From contig MTMD02000010.1 of NCBI GenBank assembly GCA_002010065.2, positions 1-64,000 on the forward strand: a stretch of DNA of 64,000 nucleotides, in the 5' to 3' direction. Position 1 is the stretch's first letter. Each line of letters opens with the position of its first letter. Below are positions 9,358-33,156 of the stretch, piece by piece. The DNA is from Candidatus Pyrohabitans jungbluthii (GTDB taxonomy: Archaea > Hydrothermarchaeota > Hydrothermarchaeia > Hydrothermarchaeales > BMS3B). A program made the position numbers and the translations under genes. The notes beneath the pieces were generated by a model, which saw only the letters and a list, made by a program, of their open reading frames with translations, had not been told where the DNA came from and did no database searches.

Positions 9358-9816
9358 ATGAATCCAAAAACGCTTATAACCGTGGCTGCGTTAATTGCCA
9401 TCGCAGCGTTTGCAGTGCTCTCGGCGAAGACAACACCCGTGGTTAGCGACAAGGACCATACCTACGTGGGCGATTTAGTGTGGCTCAACTCGTACGAAGC
9501 TGGACTGGAGAAGGCAAAACAGGAGAACAAGCCTGTGCTCCTCTATTTTTGGGCGACCTGGTGCAAGTTCTGCAGAAAGCTGAATACAGAGGTTTTCCCT
9601 GATCCAGAGGTCAACTCCCTGCTTCGCGAGCGTTTTGTGCTTGTGGCGATAAACATCGACCAAAACAAGGAGATACCCCAGAAGTATGGGGTGCAGTACC
9701 CACCTGCAGAGATTTTTGTGGACGCCGATGGCAATGTCATAACAAAGGTGATGGGCTACACCCCAAAGGAGAACTTCCTGCGGTACATAAATACAGTGCT
9801 CGCTCAGTATAGCTGA
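9358..9816 (+). CDS. Exported thioredoxin-like protein (SoxW/DsbD-gamma-like)
   Basis: Signal/anchor; FWATWCKFC; cis-Pro loop QYPP. Confidence 0.88.
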   Translation: MNPKTLITVAALIAIAAFAVLSAKTTPVVSDKDHTYVGDLVWLNSYEAGLEKAKQENKPVLLYFWATWCKFCRKLNTEVFPDPEVNSLLRERFVLVAINIDQNKEIPQKYGVQYPPAEIFVDADGNVITKVMGYTPKENFLRYINTVLAQYS

Positions 9817-9846
9817 GTCTATTGTAGCAGAGGCAACCGCTGGTGA

Positions 9847-9877
9847 TTACCGGAACGAAGATTGCGGCGTGACGGAG
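9847..9877 (+). repeat. Short palindromic element, degenerate copy (33-bp type)
   Basis: TTACCGGAACGAAGATTGCGGCGTGACGGAG aligns with the polB-internal copy TTACCCGGAAGCGGAGCTTCCGGTGTGACGAAG. Confidence 0.6.
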
Positions 9878-9915
9878 TTGCCCGTCTCACGCGTTAGCGT
9901 GATAGGGTGACGAAG
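9878..9915 (+). repeat. Short palindromic element (long-hairpin type), tandem with the previous copy
   Basis: TTGCCCGTC-TCACGC-GTTA-GCGTGA-TA-GGGTGACGAAG; same ends as the other copies, perfect inner hairpin. Confidence 0.65.
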
Positions 9916-10040
9916 AAAGCGCTACCATATCGTGGATCTTATTCAGCTCGGAAGGGGTAATAGAGGCGGGGTAGGCGCCCCTATCCGGCGAAATCTATTT
10001 AAATATTCTGCTACTATGTGTAAGGAGGAGGTAGATAAGA

Positions 10041-10310
10041 ATGGCTGACGACAACGTCGTTTATATCGGCAACAAACCCGTGATGAACTACGTTTTGGCT
10101 GTAACAACGCAGCTGAACAGTGCCAATGAGGTTACAATAAAGGCAAGGGGTCAGGCAATCTCCAGAGCTGTTGACACCGCCGAAATAGTGAGAAACCGCT
10201 TCATGCCAGAGGTCAAGGTTAAGAGCATAGAGATAGGCACAGAGACTATAACGCGAGAGGATGGGAGCACCATCAACGTCTCCAGTATGGAGATTACCCT
10301 GGCCAAGTAA
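10041..10310 (+). CDS. albA: DNA/RNA-binding protein Alba
   Basis: [34 protein letters not shown]. Confidence 0.97.
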
Positions 10311-10357
10311 ATAAACCTCCCCTACTTTTTTTATACCACCTCGCCCATAGTTAGTTT

Positions 10358-12772
10358 ATGCCCCGCGTGGTTAAAGGTTTTCTTATCGACGCTGACTACG
10401 AAACCGTCGAGAGGAAAGCGCTTATCAGGCTGTACCTGCGTGATGAGCAGGGAAAGAGTTTTATCGCCTACGACGACTCCTTCTCACCCTATTTCTTCGC
10501 TCTTCCCGGCGATGAGCCGGAGAAGGTTAAGGATAGGATACTCACCTCAGACGAAGAGGGTATTATACAGAGCATTACCATAGAAGAGAAGAGGTTCTTT
10601 GGCAAACCCGTTACAGCGCTCCGCATCACTGTACGCCACCCTCAGGATGTGCCACGAATACGGGAGCGGATACGCCACCTTGAGGGCGTAGATGCGATAA
10701 ATGAACACGACATCCTATTCGTTAGACGCTACCTGATAGACCGCGGGATTAAACCTCTTACCTGGCTCACGATGGAGGTTGAAGAAAGGCAGGACAAGCT
10801 CTTTGTGCGCAGAATTGAGCAAGCGGAGGGTGAGTTACCCGGAAGCGGAGCTTCCGGTGTGACGAAGCCTCCAAAGCTAAGGGTGGCGGCTGTAGATATA
10901 GAGGTTTACAATCCAAAGGGGGCGCCGCGCAGCAAGCAGGATCCCATAATCATGGTGAGCATAGCTACAAACGACGGCATGGAGAAGGTGCTAACCTGGA
11001 AACCTATAGAAGGCGAAGCGTACGTTGAGACCCTAAGCAGCGAGGAGGAGATGCTGCTCAGGTTTGCGCAGCTTATGCAGGAAGGCGATTACGATGTGAT
11101 CGTGGGGTACAACACAGACAACTTCGACTTCCCGTACATTAAAGATAGGGTGAAGAAGCTTGGCATTTCCCTGCCCCTGGGCAGGCTAAACGCAGAGCTT
11201 GAGGTGAGCAAGAGAGGCCCGCTACCAGAGGCGAGAATTCGTGGCAGGGCGCATGTTGATTTATACCCCATAGTGAGGCGCCACGTTAAGCTGAACAGCT
11301 ATGTGCTCGAGAGCGTGGTGGAGGAGCTTCTTGGGATAAAAAAGGAGAAGATAGACGGGGATAAGCTCTTCACATACTGGGATGCTGGCGGGGAAAACCT
11401 TGCTATGCTCGCCAGGTATTCTCTTGAGGATGCGCGGGTTACCCTGAGCCTGGCTGAGAAGTTTCTCCCTCTCTACTACGAGCTCTCCACTATCGTGGGA
11501 CAAAGCCTAAACGACGTTGCGAGAATGACGTCTGGACAACTTGTCGAATGGCTGCTCATGCGGTTCGCTACGCCAAGAGGAGAACTAATTCCCAACCACC
11601 CCGCTGGCGAGGAGTATGCAGCGCGGGCGAGTGCGACCTACGTTGGTGGGTATGTACGTGAGCCGAAGCGGGGGTTAGTCGAGAACATAGCGGTGTTTGA
11701 CTTCCGTAGCCTTTACCCAAGTATAATTGTGAGCCACAACATAGACCCGAGTACGCTGATTATAGGCAACTGCGAGGAGAACCGCGCGCCAGGTTTAGAC
11801 TACTGCTTCTCCCTGGATAAGGAGGGATTCATACCCGAAATTTTAAAGGGGTTGATCCAGCGCAGGGCTGAGATAAAGCAGCAGATGAGGCAGGTAGGCG
11901 AGGATAAAAGAAGGATGCTGGACGTCGCTGAGAAGGCACTTAAAATCCTTGCAAACTCCTTCTATGGCTACATGGGCTACCCGCGAGCGAGGTGGTACCG
12001 CCGCGAGTGCGCAGAGAGCGTCGCCGCCTTTGCGAGGATGTACATAAAGCAAGTTATGCGCATCGCCGAGGAGGAGTTCAACCTGGAGGTGGTGTACGGC
12101 GATACAGATTCGCTCTTCGTGGTAATTCCGCCTGCTAAGCGTGAGGTGGTGCAGGAGTTTCTGCGCAAGGTCAACGCCAGCATGCCGGGCATGATTGAGC
12201 TGGAATTCGAGGGCTTTTATAAGCGAGGACTGTTTGTTACAAAAAAGAGGTATGCGCTTCTGAGTGAAGAAGGCAAGATGGTGGTCAAGGGCTTAGAGTT
12301 TGTGCGCCGCGACTGGGCACCGATAGCGAGAGAAACCCAGCGGGAGGTGCTTCGCATTCTGCTGGAGGAGGCAAACCCCGAGAAGGCGGCAAAGCTTGTT
12401 CGCGACGTTATTCAGCGAATACGTGAGCGCAGGGTAACTCTTGAGGACATAACAATATACACCCAGCTTACAAAGCGAATAAAGAGCTATAAAAGCTTAG
12501 AGCCCCATGTGGTGGCGGCGCAGAAGCTTAAGGAGCGCGGTCGCGAGGTGGCGCCTGGCATGATTATAGGATACATAATAACCAAGGGCGCAAAGGCGAT
12601 ATCACATCGCGCTCTGCCTGTGGAGTTCGCCAAGCTTGAGGATTATGACCCGGATTACTACATAGACAACCAGATCCTGCCCGCGATACAGCGCATATTC
12701 GAGGCGATAGGCTACACCCGGGATTACCTCAGGGAGGGGATTACTCAGACCAGCTTAAGCAAGTGGTTTTAG
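10358..12772 (+). CDS. polB: Family B DNA polymerase (PolB3-type), no intein
   Basis: Exo I DIE, Exo II YNTDNFD, Exo III YSLED, DFRSLYPS, KILANSFYGY, YGDTDS, C-terminal PIP-box QTSLSKWF. Confidence 0.98.
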   Translation: MPRVVKGFLIDADYETVERKALIRLYLRDEQGKSFIAYDDSFSPYFFALPGDEPEKVKDRILTSDEEGIIQSITIEEKRFFGKPVTALRITVRHPQDVPRIRERIRHLEGVDAINEHDILFVRRYLIDRGIKPLTWLTMEVEERQDKLFVRRIEQAEGELPGSGASGVTKPPKLRVAAVDIEVYNPKGAPRSKQDPIIMVSIATNDGMEKVLTWKPIEGEAYVETLSSEEEMLLRFAQLMQEGDYDVIVGYNTDNFDFPYIKDRVKKLGISLPLGRLNAELEVSKRGPLPEARIRGRAHVDLYPIVRRHVKLNSYVLESVVEELLGIKKEKIDGDKLFTYWDAGGENLAMLARYSLEDARVTLSLAEKFLPLYYELSTIVGQSLNDVARMTSGQLVEWLLMRFATPRGELIPNHPAGEEYAARASATYVGGYVREPKRGLVENIAVFDFRSLYPSIIVSHNIDPSTLIIGNCEENRAPGLDYCFSLDKEGFIPEILKGLIQRRAEIKQQMRQVGEDKRRMLDVAEKALKILANSFYGYMGYPRARWYRRECAESVAAFARMYIKQVMRIAEEEFNLEVVYGDTDSLFVVIPPAKREVVQEFLRKVNASMPGMIELEFEGFYKRGLFVTKKRYALLSEEGKMVVKGLEFVRRDWAPIARETQREVLRILLEEANPEKAAKLVRDVIQRIRERRVTLEDITIYTQLTKRIKSYKSLEPHVVAAQKLKERGREVAPGMIIGYIITKGAKAISHRALPVEFAKLEDYDPDYYIDNQILPAIQRIFEAIGYTRDYLREGITQTSLSKWF
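10835..10867 (+). repeat. Short palindromic element inserted in frame in polB (LPGSGASGVTK)
   Basis: 33 bp TTACCCGGAAGC-GGA-GCTTCCGGTGTGACGAAG with perfect 8-bp stem CCGGAAGC/GCTTCCGG; ends shared with four intergenic copies. Confidence 0.75.
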
Positions 12773-33058: not shown

Positions 33059-33130
33059 AGCTTAATTTATACCTGTGAATATGTGTTCCTGGAGGTCTCG
33101 CCAGCTCTTTCAGAGCTGGCTTCGACTTCC

Positions 33131-33156
33131 CTCGTCACCCTCACTTCGTCGGGTAA
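33131..33156 (-). repeat. Short palindromic element (27-bp type, 1-nt deletion) in the phoU leader
   Basis: Reverse complement TTACCCGACGAAGTGAGGGTGACGAG, near-identical to 54727-54753. Confidence 0.75.

Follow-up and report, generated by a model that had tools for sequence, protein, structure and literature searches.

The family B DNA polymerase gene (polB) of Candidatus Pyrohabitans jungbluthii, found in a 64,000-nucleotide (nt) stretch of contig MTMD02000010.1 (the window), carries 33 nt that very probably represent one unit of a small, non-autonomous family of mobile hairpins, tolerated as a selfish in-frame insertion whose loop is probably translated. Palindromic repeats lying in frame in essential genes are a well-known peculiarity of Rickettsia and some other bacteria. 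The same in-frame behaviour is now seen in an uncultured archaeal lineage, in a replicative polymerase and probably in a second replisome protein. We judge the polB insertion to be the archaeal equivalent of the REP/RPE elements found inside bacterial genes, and the family resembles these elements and the shortest archaeal PATEs.

The hairpin unit and its host gene

10358..12772, plus strand: gene for a family B DNA polymerase of 804 aa, host of the insertion (open reading frame, Pfam, phmmer)
10835..10867, plus strand: 33-nt hairpin unit TTACCCGGAAGCGGAGCTTCCGGTGTGACGAAG of the GGAAGC/GCTTCC stem subfamily, reading LPGSGASGVTK (L160-K170) (sequence, strict pattern)
10834..10863, plus strand: extended hairpin GUUAC-CCGGAAGC / GCUUCCGG-U-GUGAC, 13 bp (RNA fold)
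10864..10867, plus strand: the unit's unpaired 3' tail, GAAG, the family tail being G[A/G/T]AG (unit tail counts)

The host open reading frame (ORF) displays the Exo I DxE, the polymerase motifs and the full-length similarity to solved archaeal PolBs (phmmer E-values down to 7.8e-207) that characterise family B, with Pfam matches to DNA_pol_B (4.1e-73) and DNA_pol_B_exo1 (1.3e-37). Across 20 aligned sequences, D180 and E182 of Exo I as well as D582-T583-D584 within YGDTDS are invariant. Solved KOD-type PolBs align to residues 9-134 and 173-803, and the insert falls between both blocks, ten residues ahead of Exo I. In the AlphaFold2 model (mean pLDDT 85), residues 158-169 score below 50 and the insert forms a coil between strands 147-155 (beta-hairpin) and 176-183 (the Exo I strand). 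The model thus shows it in a predicted disordered linker between the N-terminal and 3'-5' exonuclease domains, in agreement with the linker position proposed in the original prediction, which was made from the sequence alone.

That prediction described a 33-bp element with a perfect 8-bp stem encoding LPGSGASGVTK before Exo I, and exactly this was seen in the 804-aa ORF. The arms CCGGAAGC and GCTTCCGG (10839-10846 and 10850-10857) pair perfectly over 8 bp around the loop GGA, and removal of the 33 nt gives the claimed junction, ...AEGE/PPKLRVAAVDIE (here and below, a slash within a site marks the insertion point). By itself, a perfect 8-bp hairpin is within chance expectation, at about one per loop length per 64-kb window (estimated as 64,000 x 4^-8), and a search with the exact arms, tolerating three mismatches at most, has two matches against 0.33 expected; it is family membership and the pattern of presence and absence that raise the polB unit above chance. 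An Rfam scan of 9700-11000 (E <= 1) returned only FsrA, which was rejected as a chance match, being far under the gathering score (18.7 bits versus 80, E 0.46).

The RNA fold of 10795-10905 reaches -45 kcal/mol (z = -3.88). The extended hairpin has one U.G pair among its 13 bp, a 1-nt bulge (U) and the loop GGA, and the flanks GGAGG/CCUCC lengthen the predicted helix, with a 2x2 internal loop present. Bulge-helix-bulge introns can occur in archaeal protein-coding genes, and a 33-nt micro-intron, cut by the archaeal splicing endonuclease to give a protein without the loop, would agree with the multiple-of-three length and with a stable hairpin that has paired flanks. However, the helix is continuous over 13 bp, with one 1-nt bulge and the 2x2 internal loop rather than two 3-nt bulges 4 bp apart. 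As the original prediction had also noted, no clear bulge-helix-bulge was found, either in the minimum-energy or in the centroid fold of 10795-10905, leaving splicing unsupported. Furthermore, the verified intragenic copies all leave the frame open (33, 33, 30, 30 and 33 nt). This is the filter expected of translated rather than spliced inserts, albeit a weak sign, as 24 of the 64 strict units described below are, genome-wide, not multiples of three and an all-in-frame outcome has a probability of about 0.1 by chance. Removal at the RNA level is thus very unlikely. Instead, transcription and translation most likely carry the polB unit through into the protein, where it would form a surface loop of 11 residues, rich in Gly and Ser and of little consequence for the enzyme; the gap in relatives, the disordered linker and the sibling copies support the predicted course from selfish DNA to a tolerated peptide loop, of which we infer the translation and the neutrality.

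Presence and absence among relatives

The 11 residues are missing in 18 of the 19 other aligned PolB orthologues, including same-genus proteins at 94, 84 and 81% identity, and only the PolB of a 99%-identical relative (G001) has them. At the nucleotide level, the gap measures exactly 33 nt in the orthologues of G002, G003 and G004, so the 11-residue gap foreseen for close orthologues lies precisely where it had been placed. A linker of the same length with non-palindromic coding, which the prediction had named as evidence against itself, was found in none of the 19; G011 has about six extra residues nearby the insert position. The unit was probably gained in the common ancestor of the source genome (G000) and G001, once G004 had branched off, and it would have survived because its length is a multiple of three, its frame is free of stops and the N-terminal/exonuclease linker is flexible. 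As such, it offers a compact natural test of how far the interdomain linker of PolB tolerates insertions, which is useful for archaeal polymerase engineering.

Misplacement of a repeat copy into polB during assembly or binning is exceedingly improbable. Read depth at 10834-10864 is several-fold higher in all well-covered metagenome runs, where fragments of other copies pile up, but the unit occupies the same polB position in two separately assembled genomes (G000 and G001), the frame is open through it, and contigs with unique flanks on both sides cross it (X4; X2 from 10787 on). X4 is an independent metagenome contig, ~96% identical, that spans the site with the unit included.

The polB units of G000 and G001 are identical (0 differences). 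Given a four-fold-site rate of 0.138 between the two genomes, ~4.6 differences would be expected in an unconstrained unit (P(0) = 0.007), and the surrounding 108-nt zone is likewise unchanged. By this sequence comparison, the lack of change does not fit a fully neutral loop; it could stem from constraint, acting on either the hairpin or the peptide, from gene conversion, or from a recent exchange between lineages. It could be speculated that the insertion is domesticated, its hairpin (as DNA or mRNA) or its Gly/Ser loop being functional in PolB and selected, for example by tuning the interplay of the N-terminal and exonuclease domains or the translation of the domain boundary. In addition to the missing substitutions, the X4 contig has 32 differences in 901 nt, none of those listed lying within 10787-10893, and the helix is predicted to extend into its flanks. 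Intragenic REPs are also described as frequent in replication and repair genes, where an effect on activity has been speculated (Di Nocera et al. 2013, PMC3733652). On the other hand, the absence from 18 of 19 orthologues includes three same-genus species, the insert is predicted to be disordered, and sibling units lie in unrelated proteins and mostly in spacers. Moreover, metagenome contig X7 (~98% identical) is without 27 of the 33 nt, and the hairpin is therefore dispensable in a close relative. An adaptive insertion is accordingly improbable, and a tolerated selfish unit is preferred.

The repeat family

The repeat unit spans 28-38 nt and consists of TTACCC, a variable stem-loop and GGTGAC-G[A/G/T]AG. 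Counts were made with the strict pattern TTACCY-N10-26-GTGACGNAG and its reversal as control, because looser regular expressions (a mismatch per end) were too noisy (535 versus 353 control matches; 92 versus 24). Strict copies number 33 in the source genome (control 1), 29 in its nearest relative, G001 (control 0), and 6 in a third species, G004, while the remaining 35 genomes of the phylum have 0-1 each. Judging from these counts, the family is confined to one lineage; its pattern places the polB unit within it, and the genome alignments give the presence and absence described above. Three units also occur in a bin titled Geoglobus sp., where either transfer or mis-binning may account for them.

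The 64 strict units (58 distinct sequences) contain 36 distinct inner stems, and for each of the 58 distinct sequences 7-12 base pairs are predicted (median MFE -14.9 kcal/mol). The foot (G)TTACCC...GGGTGAC is conserved and closed by a T.G wobble that pairs on the element strand only, whereas the inner stem varies in sequence while keeping complementarity around a loop of 3-4 nt. The tails read GAAG in 32, GGAG in 26 and GTAG in 6 of the 64 units, the strict pattern presetting G, A and G so that the second base alone is free to vary. These are short, repeated imperfect palindromes, as in REP-like elements generally, and like them mostly extragenic. In the source genome, 4 of the 33 strict units are in frame within orthologue-bearing genes, namely those for PolB, the tRNA_bind and ThiF-family proteins and the DHH nuclease, a few overlap gene ends and the others lie in spacers, according to a crude ORF-based gene call that serves for a rough intergenic/genic split only and mis-assigned some loci, e.g., by choosing an antisense ORF at the tRNA-binding gene. 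Further copies in the window are:

9847..9877, plus strand: degenerate 31-nt family unit opening a head-to-tail pair, in the spacer that precedes an Alba-like ORF (MFE -8.5)
9878..9915, plus strand: 38-nt unit of the GTCTCACGC.../...GCGTGATAG stem subfamily, completing the pair with no gap to the first (MFE -17.1)
33130..33156, minus strand: short unit, 27 nt, tail GAGG (pattern match)

The tandem pair sits 920-988 nt upstream of the polB unit, where the original prediction had recognised the same family in intergenic DNA about 1 kb away. The 33130..33156 unit lies ahead of the earliest Met codons in an open frame of 370 codons and is for this reason probably in leader or intergenic DNA.

Insertion sites and further in-frame copies

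Comparison of filled and empty sites at four further loci indicates that whole units or head-to-tail arrays were inserted precisely, without target duplication. G001 carries a 161-nt five-unit array at a site that is empty in G000 (GAGTAAG/CTTCTC), a single 30-nt unit at GATAGGGG/CGGGG and, in reverse orientation at codon 4 of a PAP2-like ORF, a 33-nt unit, the latter two being absent from G000; at one locus it has two tandem units versus one in G000. These alignments show exact unit boundaries and no target duplication, and such clean sites define the unit ends to the base and reveal that the family was active very recently, between two species that are nearly identical. A target duplication of 2 nt (AG) was weighed and rejected: PolB and the tRNA-binding gene would be compatible with it, but the CGGGG site in G001 shares one G only. 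Among 26 non-tandem strict units, 25 are preceded by G (background 0.26) and 22 by RG, a preference that is partly a matter of drawing the boundary, since the hairpin may also be drawn with this G as its closing base. Abutting pairs are head-to-tail in all five cases. Whole units or head-to-tail arrays probably insert immediately 3' of G, in most cases within RG and frequently within GAG or AAG; a unit already in place would offer such a site at its tail, which would explain the zero-spacer tandem arrays.

Sibling copies in other proteins, for which the prediction had proposed a search, were found. A ThiF-family protein carries a 33-nt unit reading LPGSEASGVTE, of the same subfamily and in the same frame as the PolB unit, and a tRNA_bind protein an in-frame 30-nt unit reading VTRGTAPGDG. 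The latter is common to G000 and G001 and missing in G002-G005, the empty site in G002 (GGCGAAG/AGCGCC) agreeing with the flanks in G000. In addition, a DHH/DHH_CID/DHHA1 nuclease (RecJ/GAN-type) has a 30-nt unit in a variable loop; it probably hosts an in-frame sibling, although a clean empty site is lacking because the loop differs among relatives.

The search for a mobiliser and known systems

The transposase search covered PF01797 and PF07282. No Y1 transposase (PF01797) was detected in G000-G004, while the control was positive in 6 of 14 genomes, and no TnpB-type domain (PF07282) in G000. Completeness is 99.95% for G000 and 82-96% for G001-G004, and metagenome-assembled genomes are often missing transposase genes. 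By analogy with IS200/IS605 and REP/RAYT, we favour movement by a structure-specific nuclease or recombinase for single strands that would work on the hairpin once folded. A REP-type archaeal system free of any IS200/RAYT-type transposase, driven by an unrecognised hairpin-specific enzyme or by host replication and repair, with the replisome-gene insertions coupled to it and not due to chance alone, is conceivable but rather unlikely. If true, ~30-nt DNA hairpins would be pasted 3' of RG sites without target duplication, the PolB and probable RecJ/GAN-type insertions would reflect a coupling of insertion either to replication or to DNA transactions of the genes concerned, and the unusually well-kept PolB copy may have acquired a role.

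Intragenic tagged REPs are described in the GTAG and CGTC super-families, including RPE-4 and RPE-6 of Rickettsia (PMC3733652). As that account portrays them, they share with the archaeal units a palindrome of 20-40 bp with a short unpaired tetranucleotide tail, complementary stem changes, G.T pairs and a mostly extragenic location with some copies in frame; many of the genes hit serve replication and repair (among them those of DnaE in R. conorii, Pol I and DnaE2) or encode tRNA-related proteins (PMC3733652). The present host is archaeal, whereas only bacterial phyla appear in that survey (PMC3733652). In the GTAG super-family, an unpaired terminal GTAG occurs in >90% of members of most families, and among the degenerate forms allowed (GYAG, GTRG and others) the account does not list GAAG or GGAG (PMC3733652). 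The archaeal tail, in contrast, is G[A/G/T]AG, placed 3' of the hairpin, and no more than 6 of the 64 units end in GTAG, a composition that sets the family apart from GTAG-tagged REPs. CGTC elements are characterised by an unpaired terminal CGTC, 8-9 bp stems starting with A-T, loops of 4-5 nt, a CCA-like tail and mainly head-to-head dimers, and are described without a dedicated transposase (PMC3733652). The archaeal units differ here too: CGTC on the complementary strand is forced by the strict pattern, GACG being required, and three of its four bases (GTC) are paired in the foot, while most loops have 3-4 nt, the other end reads TAA and 5/5 abutting pairs run head-to-tail. Bacterial REPs in general are reported mostly as head-to-head or tail-to-tail dimers and rarely head-to-tail (PMC3733652), unlike the zero-spaced head-to-tail arrays seen here. 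The family nevertheless provides a tractable case for mobilisation of REP-like hairpins without RAYT, a question shared with the CGTC class.

The family is like Rickettsia palindromic elements in its behaviour (in-frame intragenic insertion). RPE-1 is likewise a selfish palindrome found in frame in many unrelated genes, its added peptide segments being judged compatible with protein fold and function, but it measures ~100-150 bp with a conserved 30-50-aa peptide (Minnick 2024, PMC10969869), compared with ~30 nt and 10-11 aa here. With REPIN/RAYT and IS200/IS605, the family has in common insertion beside a short specific sequence without target duplication, presumed hairpin recognition and strand-specific features in the form of a foot G.T wobble, as outlined for those systems (Nunvar 2010, PMC2817692; Quentin 2018, PMC6006769). 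Yet a single-copy RAYT gene flanked by repeats, the mark of REPIN/RAYT, was not found, as no Y1 HUH transposase was detected in the five genomes of the genus, drafts that can miss genes; for Archaea, the census as presented reports only classical IS200-type TnpA and no REP-associated subclasses (PMC6006769).

PATEs of Haloquadratum walsbyi are also archaeal, transposase-free and palindrome-bearing, without target duplication; their insertions are strain-specific, they can shrink to 52-bp terminal-only forms, and they appear mobile even with broken IS200-type genes (Dyall-Smith et al. 2011, PMC3119063). Being derived from IS605-type elements, however, they have two near-terminal palindromes (PMC3119063) instead of a single ~30-nt hairpin per unit. 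Compared with such IS200/IS605-derived MITEs or PATEs, the present family shares the absence of duplication and shows an RG-biased 5' flank, but neither TnpA nor TnpB nor any other IS605-type relative was found in G000, and some of its copies are in-frame intragenic insertions.

Inteins and bulge-helix-bulge introns are further selfish or intervening sequences tolerated in essential archaeal genes, polB included. An intein would need many more than eleven residues, and unlike such introns the polB unit has no bulge-helix-bulge and is most likely kept in the protein. Integron attC sites offer an analogy in their conserved inverted cores, variable stem and G/TT junction, but the cores of the present family appear to depart from the attC consensus.

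The PolB unit and its host gene

The open reading frame that contains the 33-nt hairpin encodes a family B DNA polymerase (PolB), as judged from Pfam matches to DNA_pol_B (4.1e-73) and DNA_pol_B_exo1 (1.3e-37) and from solved Thermococcales-type PolBs, which match the protein with E values down to 7.8e-207. The following features are referred to below:

10358..12772, host open reading frame, 804 codons
10835-10867, hairpin unit, in frame in the polB gene, TTACCCGGAAGCGGAGCTTCCGGTGTGACGAAG
10839-10846, first stem arm, CCGGAAGC
10850-10857, second stem arm, GCTTCCGG

The two arms form a perfect 8-bp stem with a GGA loop. In the RNA fold of 10795-10905 (-45 kcal/mol, z = -3.88), the helix grows to 13 bp (10834-10863). 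Its foot, GUUAC/GUGAC, contains one U.G pair and is broken by a 1-nt bulge. In the polymerase frame, the unit reads LPGSGASGVTK (L160-K170), ten residues N-terminal to D180 and E182 of Exo I, both of which are invariant. A lone perfect 8-bp hairpin in 64 kb is estimated to be near chance expectation; the weight lies on the repeat family and on the comparison with relatives.

Presence and absence of the unit in PolB

PolB was found by protein search in 28 of 31 related genomes, and the best 20 loci were aligned; this alignment leaves aside eleven matches, from ten genomes, that were weaker or partial. The original prediction of an 11-residue gap in close orthologues was borne out, with the insert missing from 18 of the 19 aligned proteins other than that of the genome holding the window (G000). 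These 18 include the same-genus relatives G002, G003, and G004, and the 11 residues are present in the nearest relative, G001, alone. In the DNA, the gap measures exactly 33 nt: the filled site reads GGTGAG/unit/CCTCCA in G000 and G001, while the empty sites read GAGGAG/CCCCCG in G003 and GGGGAA/CTTCCA in G004. A contig from the public metagenome run X4 spans the site and retains the unit (32 differences in 901 nt). A 243-nt contig from run X7 is missing 27 nt at 10829 and has 4 other differences; by our reading, the loss takes out the hairpin lying between a pair of GGTG repeats, and would leave GGT/GTGACGAAG, encoding E-G-V-T-K-P-P. From this one short contig, we infer a secondary deletion.

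The length of the linker between the N-terminal and exonuclease domains varies in the phylum. For example, the PolB of G011 (L011) carries about six extra residues at the same linker (GAGVPPGV region), where a palindrome is not obvious. A separate insertion of 18 residues, TLVKSLDETNLPSNKLLG, is found in the PolB of G012, from another genus, some 20 residues upstream of where the G000 unit sits. This insertion (L014, G012:C53:1517-1542) includes an 11-bp palindrome, perfect and with a 4-nt loop, that has a second copy in an AT-rich G012 spacer (L067, G012:C55:15845-15870); the sister genome G020 lacks both the insertion and the spacer palindrome. Two different palindromes may have struck this part of polB.

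Structure, splicing, and conservation of the insert

An AlphaFold2 model based on the 20 aligned sequences (mean pLDDT 85, pTM 0.78) shows residues 158-169 as coil with pLDDT below 50, as anticipated for a surface linker; on either side are a beta-hairpin (strands 136-144 and 147-155) and the Exo I strand (176-183). KOD-type solved structures align in two blocks, query 9-134 with chain 2-129 and query 173-803 with chain 134-768. As the insert falls outside both, it lies in the stretch joining the N-terminal and exonuclease parts, which is already longer in this clade. The model supports a tolerated surface loop, which is not proof of neutrality. Alternatively, the 33 nt could be removed from the RNA by splicing, but this is highly improbable, as the fold around the unit contains no bulge-helix-bulge, in line with the earlier reading of the sequence.

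Between G000 and G001, polB differs at 97 of 2415 positions, 85 of them third codon positions, and the difference rate at four-fold degenerate sites is 0.138. The unit and its surrounding 108-nt zone (about 10786-10894) show zero changes (P(0) = 0.007 for 33 free sites). Among the differences listed for the X4 contig, which leave 43 others unlisted, none falls at 10787-10893. Possible explanations for the unchanged zone are that the hairpin or peptide is under constraint, that copies have undergone gene conversion, or that the lineages recently exchanged DNA. A functional role for the insert is unlikely, and the share still left to it comes mainly from this unchanged unit and zone.

A lineage-restricted repeat family

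A fuzzy search of G000 (1.99 Mb, 15 contigs, of which C10 is the window) found ten more near-copies of the 33-mer, some with compensating stem changes, e.g., CCCACAAGC...GCTTGGGG and CCCGCAACC...GGTTGCGG. A unit generally begins with TTACC(C/T), followed by a variable stem and, after a loop of 3-4 nt, its complement; (G)G(N)GTGAC and then a G[A/G/T]AG tail close it. Matches to the strict pattern TTACCY-N10-26-GTGACGNAG exceed those to the reversed control in only 3 of 38 genomes.

Table. Matches to the strict pattern and to the reversed control.
Genome; strict matches; control matches
G000; 33; 1
G001 (PolB 99% identical); 29; 0
G004 (PolB 94% identical); 6; 0
G003; 1; 0
G002; 0; 1
Remaining 33 genomes of the phylum, each; 0-1; 0-1

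A pooled set from G000, fetched G001 stretches, and three G038 contigs comprises 64 strict units (58 distinct sequences) with 36 different inner stems, 7-12 predicted pairs per unit, and lengths of 28-38 nt, a multiple of three in 40 of the 64. All five abutting pairs of strict units in G000 are head-to-tail with zero spacer, and G001 has an array of five units. The further copy noted about 1 kb upstream in the window proved to be an intergenic pair (9847-9877 and 9878-9915).

Insertion sites and mobility

Comparison of 20 stretches around G001 units with G000 gave clean filled and empty sites at four loci:

(a) 161 nt with five tandem units in G001; empty in G000, GAGTAAG/CTTCTC
(b) single 30-nt unit in G001 at GATAGGGG/CGGGGAAGG; empty in G000
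(c) tandem pair in G001; single unit in G000
(d) reverse-orientation 33-nt unit in a G001 ORF (PAP2-like by eye) past its third codon, MSS[TSSHRRRSLRV]TLDGY...; missing from the G000 homologue, 81% identical

In addition, the empty site in a tRNA-binding gene of G002, GGCGAAG/AGCGCC, corresponds to the flanks in G000, GGTGAAG/unit/AGCGCC. These sites indicate that movement of the units is precise and does not duplicate the target. At locus (b), the junctions have only one G in common, which rules out a duplication of at least 2 nt. The 5' flank of non-tandem strict units in G000 is G in 25 of 26 (background 0.26) and RG in 22 of 26. As this G is able to pair with the C of GTGAC, it may be part of the hairpin foot and not of a target. 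Whichever reading of the G holds, the unit's own tail (GAAG/GGAG) supplies the insertion context, which explains the zero-spacer head-to-tail arrays.

Sibling inserts in other proteins

Sibling peptides had been expected elsewhere in the proteome, and a ThiF-family protein indeed carries LPGSEASGVTE, of the same subfamily and frame as the PolB insert.

G000:C15:38069-38098, 30 nt, VTRGTAPGDG, tRNA_bind domain protein (Pfam); common to G001, not in G002-G005
G000:C7:34573-34605, 33 nt, ThiF-family protein (Pfam); common to G001
G000:C8:39187-39216, 30 nt, LPETQFRVTE, DHH + DHH_CID + DHHA1 protein, RecJ/GAN-type nuclease

The ThiF insert is followed by a stop four residues downstream, and the G003 and G002 proteins are shorter at that place. 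The RecJ/GAN-type insert is only a probable sibling, because its host loop varies among relatives. Units are in sense orientation in the four G000 cases and antisense in the G001-only PAP2-like ORF. All five intragenic inserts are multiples of three in length, a weak hint that the gene copies that persist are the translatable ones (about 0.1 by chance, given 40/64 genome-wide). A TPD-motif domain protein (PF14811; G000:C2:296951-297013, L024) ends inside two tandem units, which encode about 17 residues at its C-terminus (VTRNAVSGDGVTRLAKR).

Mode of movement and relation to known elements

The units have the anatomy of elements that are processed as folded single strands, with the conserved foot, free inner stem, wobble pairing on one strand only, fixed tetranucleotide tail, lack of duplication, and short motif beside the insertion. 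IS200/IS605 and REP/RAYT systems act on folded single strands (PMC2817692, PMC6006769). Searches for PF01797 in G000 (99.95% complete) and G001-G004, and for PF07282 in G000, gave no match. CGTC-tagged bacterial REPs are likewise stated by Di Nocera et al. (PMC3733652) to "apparently lack a dedicated transposase".

As an archaeal form of the REP/RPE-type selfish hairpin, the element is new and restricted to its lineage, and it lies in frame in the replicative polymerase. The PolB observation of the original prediction is confirmed and its interpretation as a selfish palindromic insertion supported. Among described elements, intragenic REPs and Rickettsia RPEs behave most similarly. According to Di Nocera et al. 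(PMC3733652), genes for replication and repair, such as DnaE of R. conorii, host many of the intragenic REPs, as do tRNA-related genes; the parallel with PolB, RecJ/GAN-type, and tRNA-binding proteins is striking, but four or five cases carry no statistical weight. The family falls outside the strict definitions of both tagged REP super-families and differs from them by its head-to-tail arrays. The nearest archaeal precedent found is the Haloquadratum PATE class, with no duplication, lengths down to 52 bp, and mobility although the IS200 genes are broken (PMC3119063). In the full-text literature outside subscription journals, no description was found of archaeal genes carrying REP-like units in frame, or of any repeats from this lineage. 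The phenomenon is already known in bacteria, and the case is useful for its archaeal setting, base-exact insertion sites, and missing transposase.

Other repeats and copies

Another repeat, GGAAGGGGTAATAGGGGCGGGGAAGGCGCCCCTAT, about 35 nt long, occurs at 9950-9984 in the window, and G000 has about 19 further sites, e.g., C2:118830-118874. This repeat is also palindromic (ATAGGGGCG...CGCCCCTAT), often comes in pairs, and immediately precedes AT-rich promoter-like sequence; the copy in the window is located before an Alba-like ORF at 10041. Its 11-mer is not enriched by itself (39 matches vs 59 in the control), and the family is marked by long shared context (about 19 of 39 rows, counted by eye). 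Hairpin units enter its centre, after ATAGGGG, in G001 and not at the same G000 site.

G038, a 2.8-Mb bin titled Geoglobus sp., has three good units (L060-L062, on contigs C115, C258, and C372). The counts are 3 matches vs 2 in the control, and all three are clear hairpins. The flank on one of these contigs has 80% DNA identity to G000:C7:56070-56691, and the contigs may come from a wrongly binned G000 relative or reflect transfer between lineages. Finally, at G000:C2:515150-515270 and G000:C14:20250-20345, units or arrays abut, by eye, a putative tRNA 3' end on the other strand.
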